IMG/VR virus record: IMGVR_UViG_3300045972_000219
Length of the DNA stretch: 64,000 bases
DNA from: a virus
Lineage: Duplodnaviria > Heunggongvirae > Uroviricota > Caudoviricetes
Reading direction: 5' to 3' (one strand)
Position 1 is the first letter of the stretch; each line of letters begins with the position of its first letter. The notes under the pieces are model-generated. The model had not been told where the DNA came from and ran no database searches. It was given only the letters and a program-made list of their open reading frames with translations. The translations under genes were made by a program, and so were the position numbers. Below, piece by piece: positions 11,037 to 37,072 of this stretch.

Positions 11037-11044
11037 TGTATATT

Positions 11045-11119
11045 GGTAAGTAACTCAGTTGGCAGAGTCCTTGACTGTTAATCAAGTTGTCGCAGGTTCG
11101 AGCCCTGCCTTACCAGCCA
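11045..11119 (+). tRNA. tRNA-Asn (anticodon GTT)
   Basis: Cloverleaf folded by hand: acceptor TGGTAAG / CTTACCA; anticodon stem CTTGA / TCAAG with loop CTGTTAA; T-arm GCAGG-TTCGAGC-CCTGC; discriminator G; encoded CCA. Confidence 0.8.
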
Positions 11120-11812
11120 TACACTTTTCTAGCTGGACTGTATTCCCTTTGATAAGGATACATATAAACTGACTTCATATCCAAACATGAAGCATCCAGC
11201 TAGATCAAGTTTGAGATAGGTTGTATAGGGGTACGTCTACTACGCCCAGTAAGTGATATATGGAACTACGAGCCTCCTATGATCACCAGAGTAGACTACG
11301 GGACTGTGACAATTGGCGAGGTCACACGTAATAAACATGAAAGGTATGAGACGAAGGCTCTCTTCCCACATGGATCAGGCAAGCTAGAAAAAGGGTACGT
11401 ACTGAAGTAGTAGGGCATTGAGACGTGGTGCTTAGCGAGGATGAATAATCCCAGACGAGTAAACCGGATAACCGAGAAAGGTACTATAAGACTGTCTCTC
11501 TAGCAACGGATAGTAGATTTTGGTCAGCGGCAAGCAGTAGTTAGCTAAAAACTTATATCATTACACTTAACTATGCTTTAATATAAGATGCTAATGAAGT
11601 TAACGTGTACCTGAGAGTGAGCCGAAACTCTCCTTGAAAATTTTATGGAACCCGTCAAGTTTGTGCTTGGACTTTGGATTCTACCCTAGACCACGTTCGA
11701 GTCGTGGATACAACTATCTCACCGGTAATGCCAGTACTATCCTTACTACCGACAACTCCTTGTGCTGAAGGGTTGCTTGAAGAAATCGGAGATGGATAAT
11801 TAAATTAATGAG
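11120..11812 (+). ncRNA. candidate structured ncRNA region (about 690 nt ORF-free, GC-elevated)
   Basis: No ORF of 60 aa or more in any frame. GC is visibly higher than in flanking coding DNA. Long-range inverted repeats (for example CTAGCTGGA...TCCAGCTAG at 11128-11205). A tRNA-like T-arm CCACG-TTCGAGT-CGTGG lies at about 11691-11707. Confidence 0.3.
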
Positions 11813-20751: not shown

Positions 20752-20762
20752 TAACAAAGAAT

Positions 20763-20799
20763 TACTACACTGGACTCAGTCAGTCCAGTGTAGTAATAA
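20763..20799 (+). promoter_or_regulatory. 16-bp perfect hairpin without U-tract (ATTACTACACTGGACT-CAGTC-AGTCCAGTGTAGTAAT)
   Basis: Perfect inverted repeat ending at the RBS of the next gene. It could be a processing or attenuation site. Confidence 0.4.
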
Positions 20800-21149
20800 T
20801 GAGGTATATTATGTTTTTACAAGAAATGTCAACAATAGGAGTATACGATAATCATAAGATTACTGTATATGAAGAACCATTTGCAAATCCTAGCTTTCAT
20901 GTAAGATATAAAGATGAGTGGGAAGTAATTCTGCAGATTAAAGACTTTGAAATTTTAGAAAAGAAATTTGGTAAGTATGAGAAAGGTACCCATCTACCAA
21001 AAAAAGAGATAAAAGAGTTAGTTAATTACCTTCAGCAAAATAATAAATTTCTTAAAAATAATACTAATTGGGAGTATTTAATTACAACATGGAATACAAA
21101 TAATCCTAGATATGAAGTTAGTATTGATTTCAAAATACCAATTCAATGA
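20799..21149 (+). CDS. hypothetical protein, paralog A of a duplicated 115-aa family
   Basis: About 55% identical to 23119..23466 (shared VGVYD.HK.TVYEE...NPSFH..YK.EWE..LQI.DF). Lies directly upstream of the tmRNA. Confidence 0.55.
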   Translation: MRYIMFLQEMSTIGVYDNHKITVYEEPFANPSFHVRYKDEWEVILQIKDFEILEKKFGKYEKGTHLPKKEIKELVNYLQQNNKFLKNNTNWEYLITTWNTNNPRYEVSIDFKIPIQ

Positions 21150-21152
21150 TTT

Positions 21153-21570
21153 GGGGGTGAACTAGTTTCGACGGGGGACTAATAGTTATAAACACGCTCA
21201 GAGGTTTCTCGTTGGCCTCTTTAAACTACGAGAACACAATTAATTGCCAACGCTATTAATGCAGTACGTAACTTCTTTGCAGCAGACAACTATGCCTTTG
21301 CAGGTGTAGCAGCTGCTTAAGAAGTAAAAATTCCTACAGCTTAATCGTAGGTGGGGTAGAGAGTAGAGAGCGACCTTGTAACTCTTCACCCATCAACAGA
21401 AGAAACAATTAGGAAGAAATTAGTTTGACTGATACTAATCAACAACAGTCTAGAGTCCAATCCGATTTGCCTTTTTGGGATACAGCTCGAAACACTAAAC
21501 AGGCTATGAGCGTACATGTTGTAATGAAAGGTTTTTCGGACCCGAGTGGCAGTACTCGGCACCTCCACCA
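21153..21570 (+). ncRNA. ssrA: tmRNA (SsrA-like transfer-messenger RNA), phage-encoded
   Basis: The 5' end GGGGGTGAACTAGTTTCGACGGGGG matches the tmRNA 5' consensus (E. coli GGGGCUGAUUCUGGAUUCGACGGG). The 3' end CACCTCC-A-CCA pairs with the 5' 7-mer and includes a G3:U70 wobble, the Ala identity element. TTTCGGAC precedes the T-arm as in E. coli. Internal tag ORF 21279-21320 GCAGCAGACAACTATGCCTTTGCAGGTGTAGCAGCTGCTTAA encodes AADNYAFAGVAAA-stop. The T-loop is non-canonical (CCGAG-TGGCAGTA-CTCGG). Confidence 0.7.
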
Positions 21571-22612
21571 AATTTAAGATAAGGGAAAACCTACTTGATA
21601 GGTAATGGTTAAATTGGACTCCGAGGGTTAATTTCTCTCTAGTAATACCAGTCCTACCTTATCTTAATCCTTCTATTCCTTCCACCACGGAGAAATCTAC
21701 ATCTCCACTAGATTGTAGAACGGTCTAAAAGCTTAATGTGAGTTTGATCACTCAACGAGAGCTTAATAGCATAGGGGTTCTGGAGGCTTTTATGCTGGCG
21801 GAAGGAAATCAATTTGGGCATCACTGACGAAAGCTGCTCTATCCGTTTTACTTTAAAGGTTTTGATGCATGCATCTTTATCTTTCTAAAGTAAAGCCTGA
21901 TAGAACCAGTTCGTAAACGCATGCCAAGTCAATGGGCTTATTAATTTAAGCCCATTGGCGGTACTAATTTGTCGGTAAGGGCTTAAGCCACCCTTACAAA
22001 TTCCGTGTCCTACCTCTCGATATAGGATTACGTTGGTATAGTGTTAACCTTGCCAGTAGCAAGCATTTAATGATCGTCTGATCTGAGGATGTAAGACTTG
22101 TGAATCGTGCTGGTTGAACTCGATAGGACTTAGCTCCGCTATACAAGGTTCAAGAGGAGAGATTACTTCAAACTATCTTGATAAATCGAATCGAAGAAGT
22201 CCAAGAGAGATATTCTCCTTGGCCTCAGTCTATAATTTATTATAGACAATCAGTCCCACTATCAACTATAGGTAGGGGAGTCATGCTAACTGACAACTGA
22301 TGAGCCTATTGCCGTTAGATAGAGAAAAGTGGAGGGACGAAAGACTATATGTCATTTATATCCCGTAGAAGCGCACCTAATTGTGGTTGACTATAAAAAC
22401 TTATCAGTAAATTCAAGTCAAGATAAGAAATCACAATACAATAGGTTAAGTCTCTAGGCAAGTTGGAGCTAGTCCAGACATAAAGATGTAGAGCGACTTA
22501 GGACTCTACAAGCTATTCGAGAAAGAGATGCTATCGGATAGAAGTCATGAATACTTAAGGGGGTATGGCCGTATACCCATCATCTCCGGCCAATAAATTA
22601 TAGGAGACCATA
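21571..22612 (+). ncRNA. candidate large structured ncRNA (about 1040 nt ORF-free, GC-elevated) directly 3' of the tmRNA
   Basis: No ORF of 60 aa or more in six frames. GC is higher than in flanking coding DNA. Many local hairpins. Ends at the RBS of ORF 22613. Confidence 0.3.
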
Positions 22613-22816
22613 ATGGTTAGAATTCTTCCAATAGGGACTAGAGTTAAAATCATTATGAACTTATATAATAGTGATGAGACTCATATAGTTGTAGAGAAAG
22701 GTACATTAGCAACTGTCATTGATAACGTGGAAGATGAAGGAATTAATGTCCATGTTGATGACACAGTATTCACTAATATGGCTTTATGTGATTGGGAGTA
22801 TGAGGTTATACAATGA
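22613..22816 (+). CDS. hypothetical protein (67 aa)
   Basis: RBS TAGGAGACCATAATG. Confidence 0.45.
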   Translation: MVRILPIGTRVKIIMNLYNSDETHIVVEKGTLATVIDNVEDEGINVHVDDTVFTNMALCDWEYEVIQ

Positions 22817-23118: not shown

Positions 23119-23466
23119 ATGGTACAGCCAATATTTCTAACAGAAATGGCTACTGTAGGTGTATACGATAGTCATAAAGTAACAGTGTACGAAGAAACTT
23201 TAGGTAATCCATCATTTCATATCAAATATAAAAATGAATGGGAAATAGTATTGCAAATCAGAGACTTTGTAATTTTAGAAGTTAAACATGGTAATTTTAA
23301 AAAAGGTGATAAATTTCCTAGAAAAGAATATAAGGATCTAATTAAATTTCTCAATTCTAATGATGAGGATCTAAATATTAGTAATTGGAAATATTTAATT
23401 GATGCATGGAATAGAAATAATCCTAAATATAAAATATCTACAAGCACACAACTACCAATTTATTAA
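23119..23466 (+). CDS. hypothetical protein, paralog B of the 115-aa family
   Basis: See 20799..21149. RBS AAAGGAAAATTTATG. Confidence 0.55.
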   Translation: MVQPIFLTEMATVGVYDSHKVTVYEETLGNPSFHIKYKNEWEIVLQIRDFVILEVKHGNFKKGDKFPRKEYKDLIKFLNSNDEDLNISNWKYLIDAWNRNNPKYKISTSTQLPIY

Positions 23467-23508: not shown

Positions 23509-24027
23509 GTGGCTGTAAAAATTAGTGGAGGAAATATGGGAAGTAAACTAACATGGAATGTTAAAATCCTTCCAAAGATTGTTGAAAAGTCATTTTCAGT
23601 TGATTCAGTTCTAAAACAATTAGATCTTAAATTAACTGGAGGAAATAGAGAAACTGTTAAGCGTTACATTAATTCTATGAATCTAGATACATCTCATTTT
23701 ACAGGTCAAGGACATCGTAAGGGTATAGTCGGTCAGCCTTTATATATTGGGATGACACTAGATGAAATAATGATAAGAGATAGCACCTACACTAATACTC
23801 ACAGACTAAAGCTTCGCATGATCAAAGAAGGTCTACGTGATCATAAATGTGAGAAGTGTGGTTTAAATGAATGGGTAGGAAAACCTATACCACTTGAGTT
23901 ACATCATAAAAATGATATAAGAAATGATCATCGTAATAAAAATATCGAATTAATATGCCCTAATTGTCATGCACTCACAGATAATTACAGAGCTAAAAAT
24001 ATAGATATTAAATATAGATCAGCTTAA
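23509..24027 (+). CDS. HNH endonuclease (free-standing homing-endonuclease-like)
   Basis: CEKCG...ELHHKNDIRNDHRNKNIELICPNCH is a canonical HNH motif with a zinc-finger cysteine pair. Likely start at the internal ATG (about 23536) with RBS GGAGGAAATATG. Confidence 0.75.
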   Translation: MAVKISGGNMGSKLTWNVKILPKIVEKSFSVDSVLKQLDLKLTGGNRETVKRYINSMNLDTSHFTGQGHRKGIVGQPLYIGMTLDEIMIRDSTYTNTHRLKLRMIKEGLRDHKCEKCGLNEWVGKPIPLELHHKNDIRNDHRNKNIELICPNCHALTDNYRAKNIDIKYRSA

Positions 24028-24031
24028 TATC

Positions 24032-24116
24032 GCTTGTGTGGTGGAATTGGTATACACAAGGCACTTAAAATGCCTCGGCTTTAGCCATAGCAGTTCGAGT
24101 CTGCTCACAAGCACCA
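24032..24116 (+). tRNA. tRNA-Leu (anticodon TAA), class II
   Basis: Acceptor GCTTGTG / CACAAGC; anticodon stem AGGCA / TGCCT with loop CTTAAAA; variable arm about 13 nt; T-arm AGCAG-TTCGAGT-CTGCT; encoded CCA. Starts 5 nt after the HNH stop. Confidence 0.75.
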
Positions 24117-24133: not shown

Positions 24134-24328
24134 ATGCAACCACATCAAGAAAGAGTAGTTCAAGAGAAAGAGGAACTTGATAAAAAAGCTAATGCATTAA
24201 GTGATTTTATAGGGAATAGTCCAATTTTCGAAACAATTGATCCTGAAGAACAAGAACGACTTAAAGAACAAAATGATATCATGTGGCAATACTCTGAAGT
24301 ACTTGGTAAGCGTATTGCAGCTTTCTAA
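24134..24328 (+). CDS. hypothetical protein (64 aa)
   Basis: RBS AAAAGGAGGTTCTAATG. Confidence 0.5.
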   Translation: MQPHQERVVQEKEELDKKANALSDFIGNSPIFETIDPEEQERLKEQNDIMWQYSEVLGKRIAAF

Positions 24329-24329
24329 T

Positions 24330-24895
24330 GTAATCTAAAAACAGCCTATAAGATTCTTAGGGACGGTTAAGCCACGTAGGATACAGTCTCATGAACTGTA
24401 CTCTGAAGGGATAACTCCATGATTACAGTAGATGTTTACCACTACTTGCCAGATAAACAATAGGTTATTGCAACGTATTGCTGGAGAGGTAATAAGCTAA
24501 CTAGATAGGTCTATGCATGGATGCTATCTAGTGACGTCGAAATAAGAAGGTTATTCTAGATAGTCCTTCTTAGCGGTAAACACTTTAAACAAATTAATGT
24601 GTGGGTGACAAGCGGAATTGTTTAAACGTCTCTTCAGAGCAAGGAGAGGCCCACACATTTAATATGAAAGATTGATCTTGATATCCAACTTCTAACGGTA
24701 CAATTCCGTTGATGGTACCAATAAGGCAATGTATTAGACTGCAATCTAATCGAAGCCAAATGGTTGCCCTTGCAGGGGAGAAGTGTGAAAGAGAGAATTA
24801 GTTGCGGGAGACAATCTGCGGACTGTCAAACAGATGCATTTTCTATGACACGGAAGTGTGGATATCAAGATGAATGTTCCATATAAAAGGAGAAA
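24330..24895 (+). ncRNA. candidate structured ncRNA region (about 570 nt ORF-free)
   Basis: No ORF on the plus strand. GC-elevated. Only an overlapping minus-strand ORF (24746..25033), which is probably spurious. Confidence 0.25.
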
Positions 24896-24899
24896 TGTT

Positions 24900-25001
24900 A
24901 TGAAGTGTGGAATAACTAAAGAGAAGATGTATTGCATTACATGTAAACAAGTAGTAGATGGAACAAGTGGTATTTGTCCTAATTGTGGAGCAGCTATATA
25001 A
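24900..25001 (+). CDS. zinc-ribbon mini-protein (33 aa, MKCGITKEKMYCITCKQVVDGTSGICPNCGAAI)
   Basis: Strong RBS AAAAGGAGAAATGTTATG. CxxC...CxxC motif. Embedded between two ORF-free regions. Confidence 0.4.
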   Translation: MKCGITKEKMYCITCKQVVDGTSGICPNCGAAI

Positions 25002-25029
25002 AACCGTATTTGAATATTACGAATATTCT

Positions 25030-26183
25030 TCAATAAAAAATTATTAACATAAAATTACATAACTCAGATTGACCCATGAGTACGGTTTTCTTTCGGGAAG
25101 ACAGTGCAATAATGGGGTGTCATGGGGGGGCAGGTTTCATGTCCTCGTTGGAGGTAAACCAACGGAAGAATAACTCTAGTAATAGAGATAAAAGATTTCT
25201 ATGATCCATAAGTAGAGTCTGGTGAGAAATATGCTATCCATTGTGAATGCACTCACTTCAATTGAAAACCATTAATACACAATATTCTTGGGCGGAGGAA
25301 ACCCTAAAGGCTTCCAAAGAGAATATTACTTGGTATGAAGGTCGCATACTGAGTTGAGTCGAAAGACAATAGAATGTATTAATGCTTGTAATGTGCAATG
25401 GACTAGTCATCCGGAGTGCGTACATGAGTTATCGGTTATCCCTATTGCGTTTGCCAAAGCGCACCTAGATTGGCATCTAGGTCAAGAAATTGGTGGGAAA
25501 TGACTAAATACAGTAAGTATCCTTGACAGGAGAAAACAGAAGGGTGACGCATCTAAACTACTCAAAAGGTAGCATGATGACAACGTCAACCTCATCCTTC
25601 ATCAAACGACTAATGGATAAATTCTATTATAATCATTGGATCTGAAATCCAAACTATATGAGATGATATCTATAAAAGCAAAAGTGTTGACGGCATTTGA
25701 ACTAAAATGAACTTATTCCTCTGTAATATGGGGATATCTGAAAGTACCGCAAGGAAATCAGATAAGAAGAAACGAGTAACATTGACCTAACAGGTGGGAA
25801 CCTGTGAACTCTGCCAAGAGAGGATGTGTGAAAGAAGTAATCTATACAGTCAGATGCAGAAGAGTTGCAAGACTCTAAAACTTGTGTTCATGGATGCTAC
25901 TATCTTGAAAGGGATAGTGTGTAAAGAGTTTCGAAAGAAATTTTAACGTATCCATTACGGGTCAATTTACTCAGCCCAACAATTAATAATCGCCTTATTC
26001 CCCTCCATAGGAATAAGGCGATTTATTAAATCTCCTTTCCACCGTAGATTAATGGGAGATGAGCACTCATGTAGAGCATGCTACCTTTATGGTCACAATG
26101 CATGTACTAAGTCTGGCAATCTCGATGTGATCCCGACTCTCGCTCACAAGTGGATGGACATCCACTATAAATAACGTCTAAAT
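25030..26183 (+). ncRNA. candidate large structured ncRNA (about 1150 nt ORF-free, GC-elevated) ending at a terminator
   Basis: No ORF in any frame. GC is markedly above the genome average. Ends with an intrinsic terminator at 26184-26230. Confidence 0.3.
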
Positions 26184-26230
26184 TAACCCTTATTCCTTAA
26201 TTGGAAAAAGGGTTAATTTTTTTTTTTTAC
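26184..26230 (+). terminator. rho-independent terminator (TTAACCCTTATTCC-TTAATT-GGAAAAAGGGTTAA plus T11)
   Basis: Hairpin with the same CC-TTAATT-GG loop as the terminators at 16354 and 26975, followed by 11 T. Confidence 0.75.
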
Positions 26231-36839: not shown

Positions 36840-37025
36840 ATGTTCACAGAAGAAGAAATGAGAATGCTTCTTATTCTTGTTGAAAAAGAGATGCAGTTCA
36901 GTAAATTGACTGCATCTTTGTTGGTTGGCGTTAAAGATAAATTAAACAATGAGCTTACCCTTCATGAGAAGGGTAAAGTTTACATCGATGGTGATTATAA
37001 TAATGGGATAGGAAATTGTCCATAA
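36840..37025 (+). CDS. hypothetical protein (61 aa) co-transcribed with the metallopeptidase
   Basis: RBS AAGAAAGGAGCATCACATG. Confidence 0.45.
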   Translation: MFTEEEMRMLLILVEKEMQFSKLTASLLVGVKDKLNNELTLHEKGKVYIDGDYNNGIGNCP

Positions 37026-37042
37026 GGAATTTATCATAAAAT

Positions 37043-37072
37043 AAGGAGGGGTCACTTCCCTTCTTTTTTTTA
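37043..37072 (+). terminator. putative intrinsic terminator ending the plus-strand island
   Basis: GGAGGGG-TCACTT-CCCTTCT imperfect hairpin, then T8. Confidence 0.45.

Follow-up and report, generated by a model that had tools for sequence, protein, structure and literature searches.

What is the kilobase of gene-free DNA that lies directly 3' of a transfer-messenger RNA (tmRNA) gene in a phage of the class Caudoviricetes? We addressed this question computationally in a stretch of 64,000 nucleotides, which we call the window, from the IMG/VR virus record IMGVR_UViG_3300045972_000219. A first-pass annotation had marked a block at 21571-22612 that lacks open reading frames (ORFs) and has a raised guanine plus cytosine (GC) content, and had proposed that it is a large structured RNA of the kind represented by GOLLD and ROOL. 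That proposal survives in part. The block is noncoding, has an RNA-like composition, shows a predicted folding bias towards the + strand, and adjoins a tmRNA; it matches no named RNA family and is not rich in GNRA tetraloops. We tentatively prefer the reading that the block may be a large structured RNA restricted to this phage lineage (an "orphan"), made in one transcript with the tmRNA from an island of stable RNAs. The block and its immediate neighbors are:

21153..21570, + strand: phage-encoded tmRNA, the 5' neighbor of the block (Rfam RF00023, 104.3 bits)
21571..22601, + strand: ORF-free, GC-elevated noncoding block, a candidate structured RNA (by tests of coding, Pfam, GC, folding and Rfam)
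22613..22816, + strand: ORF of 67 amino acids (aa), the 3' neighbor of the block (strong Shine-Dalgarno (SD) sequence AGGAG at 22602-22606, ATG at 22613, positive coding potential)

The tmRNA directly upstream of the block is genuine, as had been claimed. It matches the whole RF00023 model (positions 1-374 of 374) with 104.3 bits against a gathering threshold of 47 and ends at 21570. Its 3' end, ...CACCTCCACCA, consists of the acceptor 3' strand and an encoded CCA, and the first base of the block (21571) is the base that follows this CCA. The acceptor carries a G3:U pair and the tag ORF (21246-21320) is predicted to encode a tag of 24 aa, ANAINAVRNFFAADNYAFAGVAAA*. The central pseudoknot region aligned poorly to the Rfam model, and the T-arm reads CCGAG-UGGCAGUA-CUCGG in place of a canonical T-loop. 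ARAGORN made no call for the tmRNA at 21153-21570, probably because of this atypical T-loop. The 3' boundary of the block is set by the 67-aa ORF, the SD sequence of which starts at 22602 and leaves 22601 as the usable limit.

The block does not encode a protein. No ORF of at least 60 aa occurs in any of the six frames of 21572-22612, in agreement with the first-pass annotation, and stop-free runs reach 58 codons at most. This makes the block the second-longest ORF-free gap in the window, the longest being 25034-26226, which contains a GOLLD RNA described below. The estimate that the genome is otherwise about 95% coding was too high; a greedy gene set covers approximately 82% of the window and ORFs of at least 60 aa approximately 92%. 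Each of the six frames of the block contains 20-28 stops spread over TAA, TAG, and TGA, and reassignment of a single stop opened no frame (the best result was 144 codons on the - strand). Log-odds scores for codon usage, derived from 31 long ORFs of the window, were negative in all six frames across 21100-22600, versus +10 to +33 bits per 120 nucleotides (nt) in the flanking genes. Searching six-frame translations of the block against Pfam at E<=1 returned nothing except one chance match of 13.6 bits, and a decayed gene was rejected on the stops, the codon usage, and this search, which yielded no protein remnant. The block has an identical sequence in all assemblies that cover it, which come from three samples, and sequencing error is therefore excluded; these other copies belong to the same phage population. 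A protein gene masked by an alternative code, a frameshift, or a sequencing error, which had been named as one outcome that would overturn the proposal, is excluded, as far as sequence analysis can show, by the stops, the codon usage, and the Pfam search. The flanking genes read normally in code 11, and we give a hidden gene of this kind virtually no probability.

In composition, the block is closer to this phage's RNA genes than to its spacers. Its GC content is 0.399 compared to 0.327 for coding sequences (CDS), bearing out the claim that it lies above its flanks, and it ties for the highest-GC kilobase of the window. For comparison, GC is 0.310 in 25 ordinary short spacers, 0.433 in the tmRNA, and 0.374 in the GOLLD 3' domain. 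That 1 kb is kept at a GC of 0.40 where ordinary spacers are at 0.31 argues against neutral filler. The 5' 680 nt of the block has a GC skew of 0.03, an AT skew of -0.03, and a purine fraction of 0.497; both skews are mostly positive in neighboring + strand coding windows. These near-zero skews fit a heavily paired RNA and count against neutral drift.

Thermodynamic predictions point to structure on the + strand. Over 1 kb, the minimum free energy (MFE) z-score relative to dinucleotide shuffles was -5.2 for the + strand of the block, -3.0 for its - strand, and -5.0 for the GOLLD block. At -29.7 per 100 nt, the MFE of the block is the lowest among 36 segments tested (shuffles, -25.0+-0.9; 16 CDS segments, -24.1+-2.3; GOLLD block, -28.4). 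In windows of 150 nt the mean z-score of the block was -1.5 on the + strand and -0.4 on the - strand, the same asymmetry that was found for GOLLD (-2.0 and -0.2), with a background of -0.4 to -0.9. The strongest local z-score of the block (-4.9, + strand) belongs to the 150-nt window at 21901. The many local stem-loops that had been noticed are supported by 30 helices with a pair probability (p) of at least 0.7 on the + strand. High-probability pairs number 182 on this strand, including 18 G.U pairs, compared to 138 pairs in 23 helices on the - strand. The block also contains two perfect local inverted repeats with arms of at least 11 nt, which none of 300 dinucleotide shuffles matched. In the predicted ensemble, a fraction of 0.38 of the nucleotides has one partner with p>=0.7 and the entropy is 0.79. 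This evidence is suggestive of + strand structure that lacks the hallmark of an "ornate" RNA.

Folding of the single sequence, at lengths of 1042 nt and 1000 nt, gave modules D1, D2, D3, D4, and D6 repeatedly. The predicted elements are:

21574..21667, + strand: D1, 94 nt, closed by a perfect 11-bp helix TTAAGATAAGG / CCTTATCTTAA (inverted repeat I6, helix p 0.96)
21677..21806, + strand: D2, predicted five-way junction with a 7-bp closing helix (inverted repeat I7, helices p 0.96-0.99)
21833..21910, + strand: D3, long imperfect hairpin of approximately 29 bp in five stacked segments (p 0.76-1.00)
21928..21959, + strand: D4, 13-bp hairpin, 11 bp of it perfect Watson-Crick, with loop UUAAUU (inverted repeat I8, p 0.99)
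22126..22475, + strand: D6, 350-nt multibranched domain (closing helices 22126-22137 / 22465-22475, p 0.99)
22487..22510, + strand: 7-bp hairpin (p 0.93), with a terminator-like score on the - strand
22561..22578, + strand: GC-rich 3' hairpin GGGUAUG-GCCG-UAUACCC, approximately 24 nt before the SD sequence of the next gene and lacking a U-tail

D1 has an inner hairpin at 21613-21643 and is common to the MFE and centroid structures. D2 is predicted to contain four hairpins (21689-21706, 21709-21727, 21729-21764, and 21769-21795); five of the 11 pairs in the last of these are G.U, so that it can form on the + strand only. The RNAalifold structure used for the D2 model (R1) has the same D2 fold. 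D6 comprises sub-domains at 22146-22307 and 22310-22460 with inner helices of p 0.77-1.00 and is the same in both folds. D4 was considered as an intrinsic terminator and rejected since no U-run follows the hairpin. A perfect complement of 12 nt links 22230-22241 to 22592-22603, beside the SD sequence of the next gene. Analysis of pair probabilities revealed no high-probability helix that pairs the 5' and 3' ends of the block.

We compared 21100-22700 with all 4227 families of Rfam 15 using cmscan with lax filters at E<=10 and found no match inside the block, as was also the case at gathering thresholds. The sole matches in this interval were the tmRNA, tmRNA_permuted (within the tmRNA), and a chance mir-279 match over the start of the next gene. 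The block therefore contains none of the families that had been suggested for a check, namely GOLLD, ROOL (presumably RF03087), HEARO, OLE, group I and II introns, and RNase P, and the same scan gave no match to riboswitches, small ribozymes, tRNA-like elements, or small RNA (sRNA) families. ARAGORN found no tRNA in the block. GOLLD has the accession RF02032 rather than RF01998 as had been given, and membership of the block in this family was rejected because RF02032 has no match there even though it finds 25539-25977. The block does share with GOLLD a location in a phage and a directly adjoining tRNA-type gene, in this case the tmRNA.

Several other identities were considered and rejected. 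The block is not part of a longer or two-piece tmRNA, as RF00023 aligns over 1-374 within 21153-21570 and neither tmRNA nor tmRNA_permuted has a match in the block. Strings of the form CUGAUGA...GAAA near 22294-22345, seen by eye, recall a hammerhead; stem II fails to close and there is no Rfam hammerhead match. No tandem repeats, iterons, or arrays were found in the block. With up to three mismatches allowed, the window contains a single copy of the final 17 nt of the tmRNA, which means that the tmRNA 3' end is not duplicated, and an island integrated at ssrA was rejected because the distal border carries no direct repeat of this end. Complementarities between the tmRNA and the block (I3-I5) are about as numerous as expected by chance, the expectation being our own estimate.

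Homologs of the block were sought widely. A distant-mode blastn search of GenBank phages with the block returned nothing at E<=1e-5 or at E<=5, and neither did megablast with 15 kb of context or a search of plasmids; the tmRNA and the GOLLD block as queries against phages gave nothing relevant. Three patterns derived from the block had one chance 17-mer match in IMG/VR (L236), and a covariance model built from D2 as a single sequence had no match in 224 kb other than D2. Patterns derived from the tmRNA had 0 matches in IMG/VR and, in GTDB genomes and JGI metagenomes, led to 212 ordinary bacterial tmRNA loci (1.2 Mb), none of which has anything block-like. We found no description in the literature of a large RNA adjoining a phage tmRNA, and no paper that cites the source samples.

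The genes around the block were also used as guides. For the 694-aa protein encoded upstream, a single diverged homolog (P0002, 59% identity) was found among 5.8 billion clusters, and IMG/VR and the JGI metagenome collection gave no relative. The DUF4160 gene next to the tmRNA has two homologs elsewhere, both followed by protein-coding genes and neither beside RNA genes. For the 97-aa downstream gene there are 16 homolog clusters; the seven with contigs that were read all lie in unrelated contexts that lack a tmRNA or the block. Members of this family (L007-L021, L237-L241) are 40-70% identical and scattered over unrelated phage contigs with a GC of 0.40-0.60, often among tiny ORFs near a gene resembling CCA-adding/poly(A) polymerase and a Pyr_excise gene, which suggests that the 97-aa gene is a mobile gene of the "moron" type. 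ORF-poor stretches in two contigs (L019 and L238) have no similarity to the block and no RNA family. The stretch in JGI contig L019 (152-1704) is approximately 1.5 kb long, lacks + strand gene calls, and lies upstream of a 97-aa homolog; its GC is not above that of its flanks and its Rfam matches are only noise of the palindrome type.

Is the pairing of a tRNA-type gene with a large noncoding block peculiar to this locus? A scan of the whole window against Rfam at E<=5 revealed one known large RNA:

25539-25977, + strand: divergent GOLLD 3' domain (RF02032, 80.6 bits, full model 1-416)

The score of 80.6 bits is below the gathering threshold of 150, and a standard scan at that threshold missed this RNA; the E-value is 3e-19 for the whole window and 1e-20 locally. 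The conserved GOLLD elements AAAGCAAAAGU, CGCAAG, AGUAAU, and CUCAGCC align at 25539-25977. The ORF-free block that holds this match spans 25034-26226, and tRNA-Leu(taa) lies upstream of it at 24032-24116. The idea that GOLLD might be expected in this context was thus right for the phage, with GOLLD approximately 3 kb downstream, and wrong for 21571-22612 itself. Between a 64-aa ORF and the GOLLD 3' domain, 24329-25538 (+ strand) forms approximately 1.2 kb of noncoding sequence with a GC of 0.38 and negative coding potential. Part of it should be the variable 5' region of GOLLD; the remainder amounts to approximately 0.7 kb. A third noncoding block, 11120-11812 (+ strand, 693 nt), lies directly 3' of tRNA-Asn (11044-11119). 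Its GC of 0.42 is the highest in the window, and it contains no ORF of at least 60 aa, no Rfam match at E<=5, and no similarity to the block beside the tmRNA. Similarity between the latter and the other noncoding blocks of the window, the GOLLD block included, was not detected.

A tRNA-type gene followed by a large GC-enriched ORF-free block therefore occurs three times in the window: tRNA-Asn with 11120-11812, the tmRNA with 21571-22601, and tRNA-Leu plus the 64-aa ORF with 24329-26226, which includes GOLLD. A known RNA family is present only in the third of these blocks. It is mainly because this pattern recurs that we retain the candidate RNA beside the tmRNA although the searches for homologs found none.

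Every gene between 0.7 and 27 kb of the window is on the + strand. A consensus scan found neither a + strand intrinsic terminator nor a promoter-like site inside the block, and no + strand terminator between the tmRNA and the next gene. From this arrangement we infer that one transcript very probably spans the tmRNA, the block, and the genes downstream. In the reading that we prefer, rightward transcription would cover both the block and the tmRNA, as members of an island of stable RNAs comprising tRNA-Asn and its 0.7-kb block, a tRNA-Leu, the tmRNA and its 1-kb block, and a tRNA-Leu followed by approximately 1.9 kb with GOLLD. The block would be released from the precursor when the 3' CCA end of the tmRNA matures, and would fold into stable modules consisting of the 94-nt domain, the five-way junction, the long hairpins, and the 350-nt multibranched domain. 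Its role would be of the same general kind as those of GOLLD and ROOL, with membership in neither family. A bolder version, which we consider quite improbable, is that the block represents a new class of phage RNA of approximately 1 kb that shares one transcript with the tmRNA and acts with it on host ribosomes or in ribosome rescue, or assembles into a higher-order RNA particle. The phage would then have three different large RNAs (this one, GOLLD, and the tRNA-Asn block), each attached to a tRNA-like gene, and the block might even stay tethered to the tmRNA in the manner of the tRNAs in the GOLLD linker.

A number of results weigh against an orphan structured RNA. No homolog of the block was found in GenBank phages, plasmids, IMG/VR, JGI metagenomes, GTDB genomes, or the 35 loci with homologs of the flanking genes, and therefore no covariation can be shown. 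A coding control had an MFE z-score of -3.3, and the well-definedness of the ensemble is approximately 1-1.6 standard deviations above shuffles and inside the CDS range. Ornate RNAs have many GNRA tetraloops capping their helices; of the 22 predicted hairpins in the block, none has a GNRA or UNCG tetraloop, compared to GNRA tetraloops in 7 of 23 predicted hairpins in the GOLLD block and in none of those in CDS controls. Long perfect hairpins like those in the block are found less typically in ornate RNAs than in signals for processing or termination, and the 3' 350 nt is purine-rich with a skew like that of messenger RNA (mRNA). Transcription, processing, unity, and function of the block are deduced from sequence, and its ends and transcript are predictions.

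The main alternative, which we regard as somewhat unlikely, is that the block is no discrete functional large RNA but a processing, stability, or leader spacer, in which the tmRNA precursor's 3' trailer runs into a leader 5' to the 67-aa and 97-aa genes. The long hairpins would then be RNase III/E sites, exonuclease blocks, or elements of translational control, and the rest would be filler tolerated in a genome of at least 171 kb. Such a spacer would account for perfect hairpins of 11-13 bp that resemble processing or stabilizing signals, for the lack of GNRA tetraloops and a well-definedness not clearly above controls, and for the 12-nt complement (22230-22241 / 22592-22603) next to the following SD sequence. 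The mRNA-like skew of the 3' third, the absence of an internal terminator or promoter, and the lack of homologs, as expected of fast-evolving sequence, are also consistent with it. Against this, 1 kb is very long where other spacers are 40-250 nt, and a GC of 0.40 rather than the 0.31 of ordinary spacers runs contrary to the mutational bias of the genome. The block also has the lowest MFE density among all segments tested, and the three tRNA-adjacent blocks share a raised GC, one of them containing a bona fide GOLLD.

The lack of a high-probability helix joining the two ends allows a further possibility, namely that D1, D2, D3/D4, and D6 are separate small products cut from the island transcript, either sRNAs or RNAs of a decoy or degenerate tRNA-like type. 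The domains are modular and self-closed, and phage tRNA islands are processed from polycistronic precursors, which makes such cutting plausible. However, no tRNA, tRNA-like, or sRNA family matched at E<=10, there are no internal promoters or terminators, and the domains are not repeats of each other, leading us to consider a cluster of this kind improbable. We judge it very improbable that the block acts at the level of DNA or is a relic, whether a replication or packaging site, a recombination hotspot, a remnant of a mobile element or homing endonuclease, or host DNA captured with the tmRNA. Joint acquisition would explain a GC that is unlike the rest of the phage and equal to that of the adjacent tmRNA, and local mosaicism is indicated by the nearby HNH endonuclease gene and the duplicated DUF4160 genes, as well as by homologs of the flanking 97-aa gene in unrelated contexts. 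Yet neither iterons nor tandem repeats nor an AT-rich unwinding element were seen in the block, the tmRNA 3' end is not duplicated, there is no att-like repeat, and searches gave no remnant of a protein. Nothing block-like lies downstream of the tmRNA at the 212 bacterial and metagenomic loci, and the strand-asymmetric folding and G.U-dependent helices point to RNA.

The window as a whole has the character of a phage genome fragment: it is AT-rich (GC 0.33) and densely coding, with genes for GyrA, a Dda-like helicase, and HNH endonucleases, and with three tRNAs. A protein identical to one encoded here is present on a JGI contig of 171 kb, and the genome is therefore at least that large. Two DUF4160-like paralogs that are 55% identical (20799-21149 and 23119-23466, + strand) flank a segment that holds the block, the tmRNA, and two small genes. 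Between the first paralog and the tmRNA there are 3 nt, and the second is followed by an HNH endonuclease gene (23509-24027, + strand; phrog_10822, E=4e-42) and then by tRNA-Leu(taa), 4 nt before which the endonuclease gene stops. After this tRNA comes the 64-aa ORF (24134-24328, + strand), which carries the Pfam annotation PF21825 "Sequestin". A perfect 16-bp hairpin of 37 nt (20761-20797) with a terminator-like score on the - strand lies between a 133-aa gene and the first DUF4160 gene. Located just 5' of the tmRNA unit, it may be a bidirectional terminator or a processing signal. Elsewhere, an intergenic gap at a strand switch contains a weak PrrB/RsmZ-like match (36941-37071, + strand; 26.9 bits versus a gathering threshold of 44, E=0.029) that may represent a sponge-type sRNA rich in GGA or have arisen by chance.

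Independent assemblies of this phage from different samples and assemblers break in the RNA island. Two of them end in the GOLLD 3' domain, 12 nt apart (L002 at 25691, L003 at 25679), one ends in the first DUF4160 gene (L006 at 21033), and L003 starts inside the block beside the tmRNA (22028). These breaks could reflect strain heterogeneity, or problems of coverage or structure. The sole difference seen among the assemblies is a single-nucleotide polymorphism, C/A, at 20989.

Large structured RNAs of bacteria and phages are rare. GOLLD and ROOL, the function of which is unknown, have reportedly been found of late to form nanocages made of RNA only. A phage with a tmRNA, GOLLD, and up to two more GC-enriched noncoding blocks on the kilobase scale, each 3' of a tRNA-type gene, offers a compact natural setting for asking what large RNAs do and whether co-transcription with tRNA-like molecules belongs to their mechanism. 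Should the block prove to be a real RNA, it would be a new class tied to trans-translation. If it is a mere spacer, then ORF-free GC-rich sequence beside a tRNA-type gene is insufficient to call an ornate RNA.

Among known systems, genomic islands at the 3' end of bacterial ssrA resemble the block in that a tmRNA gene gives way directly at its 3' end to foreign-looking sequence. The block differs from them in having no duplicated ssrA 3' segment, integrase, or genes, in being 1 kb long, and in residing in a phage rather than a chromosome. It also resembles the trailers and spacers of tRNA and tmRNA precursors in phage tRNA islands, such as the polycistronic tRNA transcripts of the T4 type, since it starts at an encoded CCA with no terminator between and would have to be removed by 3' processing. 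Those trailers and spacers are tens of nucleotides rather than approximately 1 kb long and lack GC-enriched structured modules. Both GOLLD and ROOL occur in phages or prophages close to tRNA islands and may be transcribed together with tRNAs (PMC12286853, PMC5737381). ROOL is of unknown function, is thought to act without protein partners, and has few highly conserved nucleotides (PMC5737381, PMC12286853). The all-Rfam cmscan gave no ROOL match in the block, and what the two would share, if the block is an RNA, is the setting of a large phage- or prophage-type RNA near tRNA islands. In GOLLD, the 3' region is conserved, the 5' region is variable, and the linker sometimes holds tRNAs (PMC12286853, PMC5737381). 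The block has no match to the GOLLD 3' domain at E<=10, lacks the AAAGCAAAAGU, CGCAAG, and CUCAGCC motifs, has no GNRA tetraloops compared to seven predicted in the GOLLD of this phage, and shows no sequence similarity to it. Nonetheless, both are noncoding, phage-encoded sequences of approximately 0.8-1 kb that adjoin a tRNA-type gene in a tRNA island and are probably co-transcribed with it, and both combine a GC above the genome background with nearly the same MFE z-score (-5.0 for GOLLD and -5.2 for the block).

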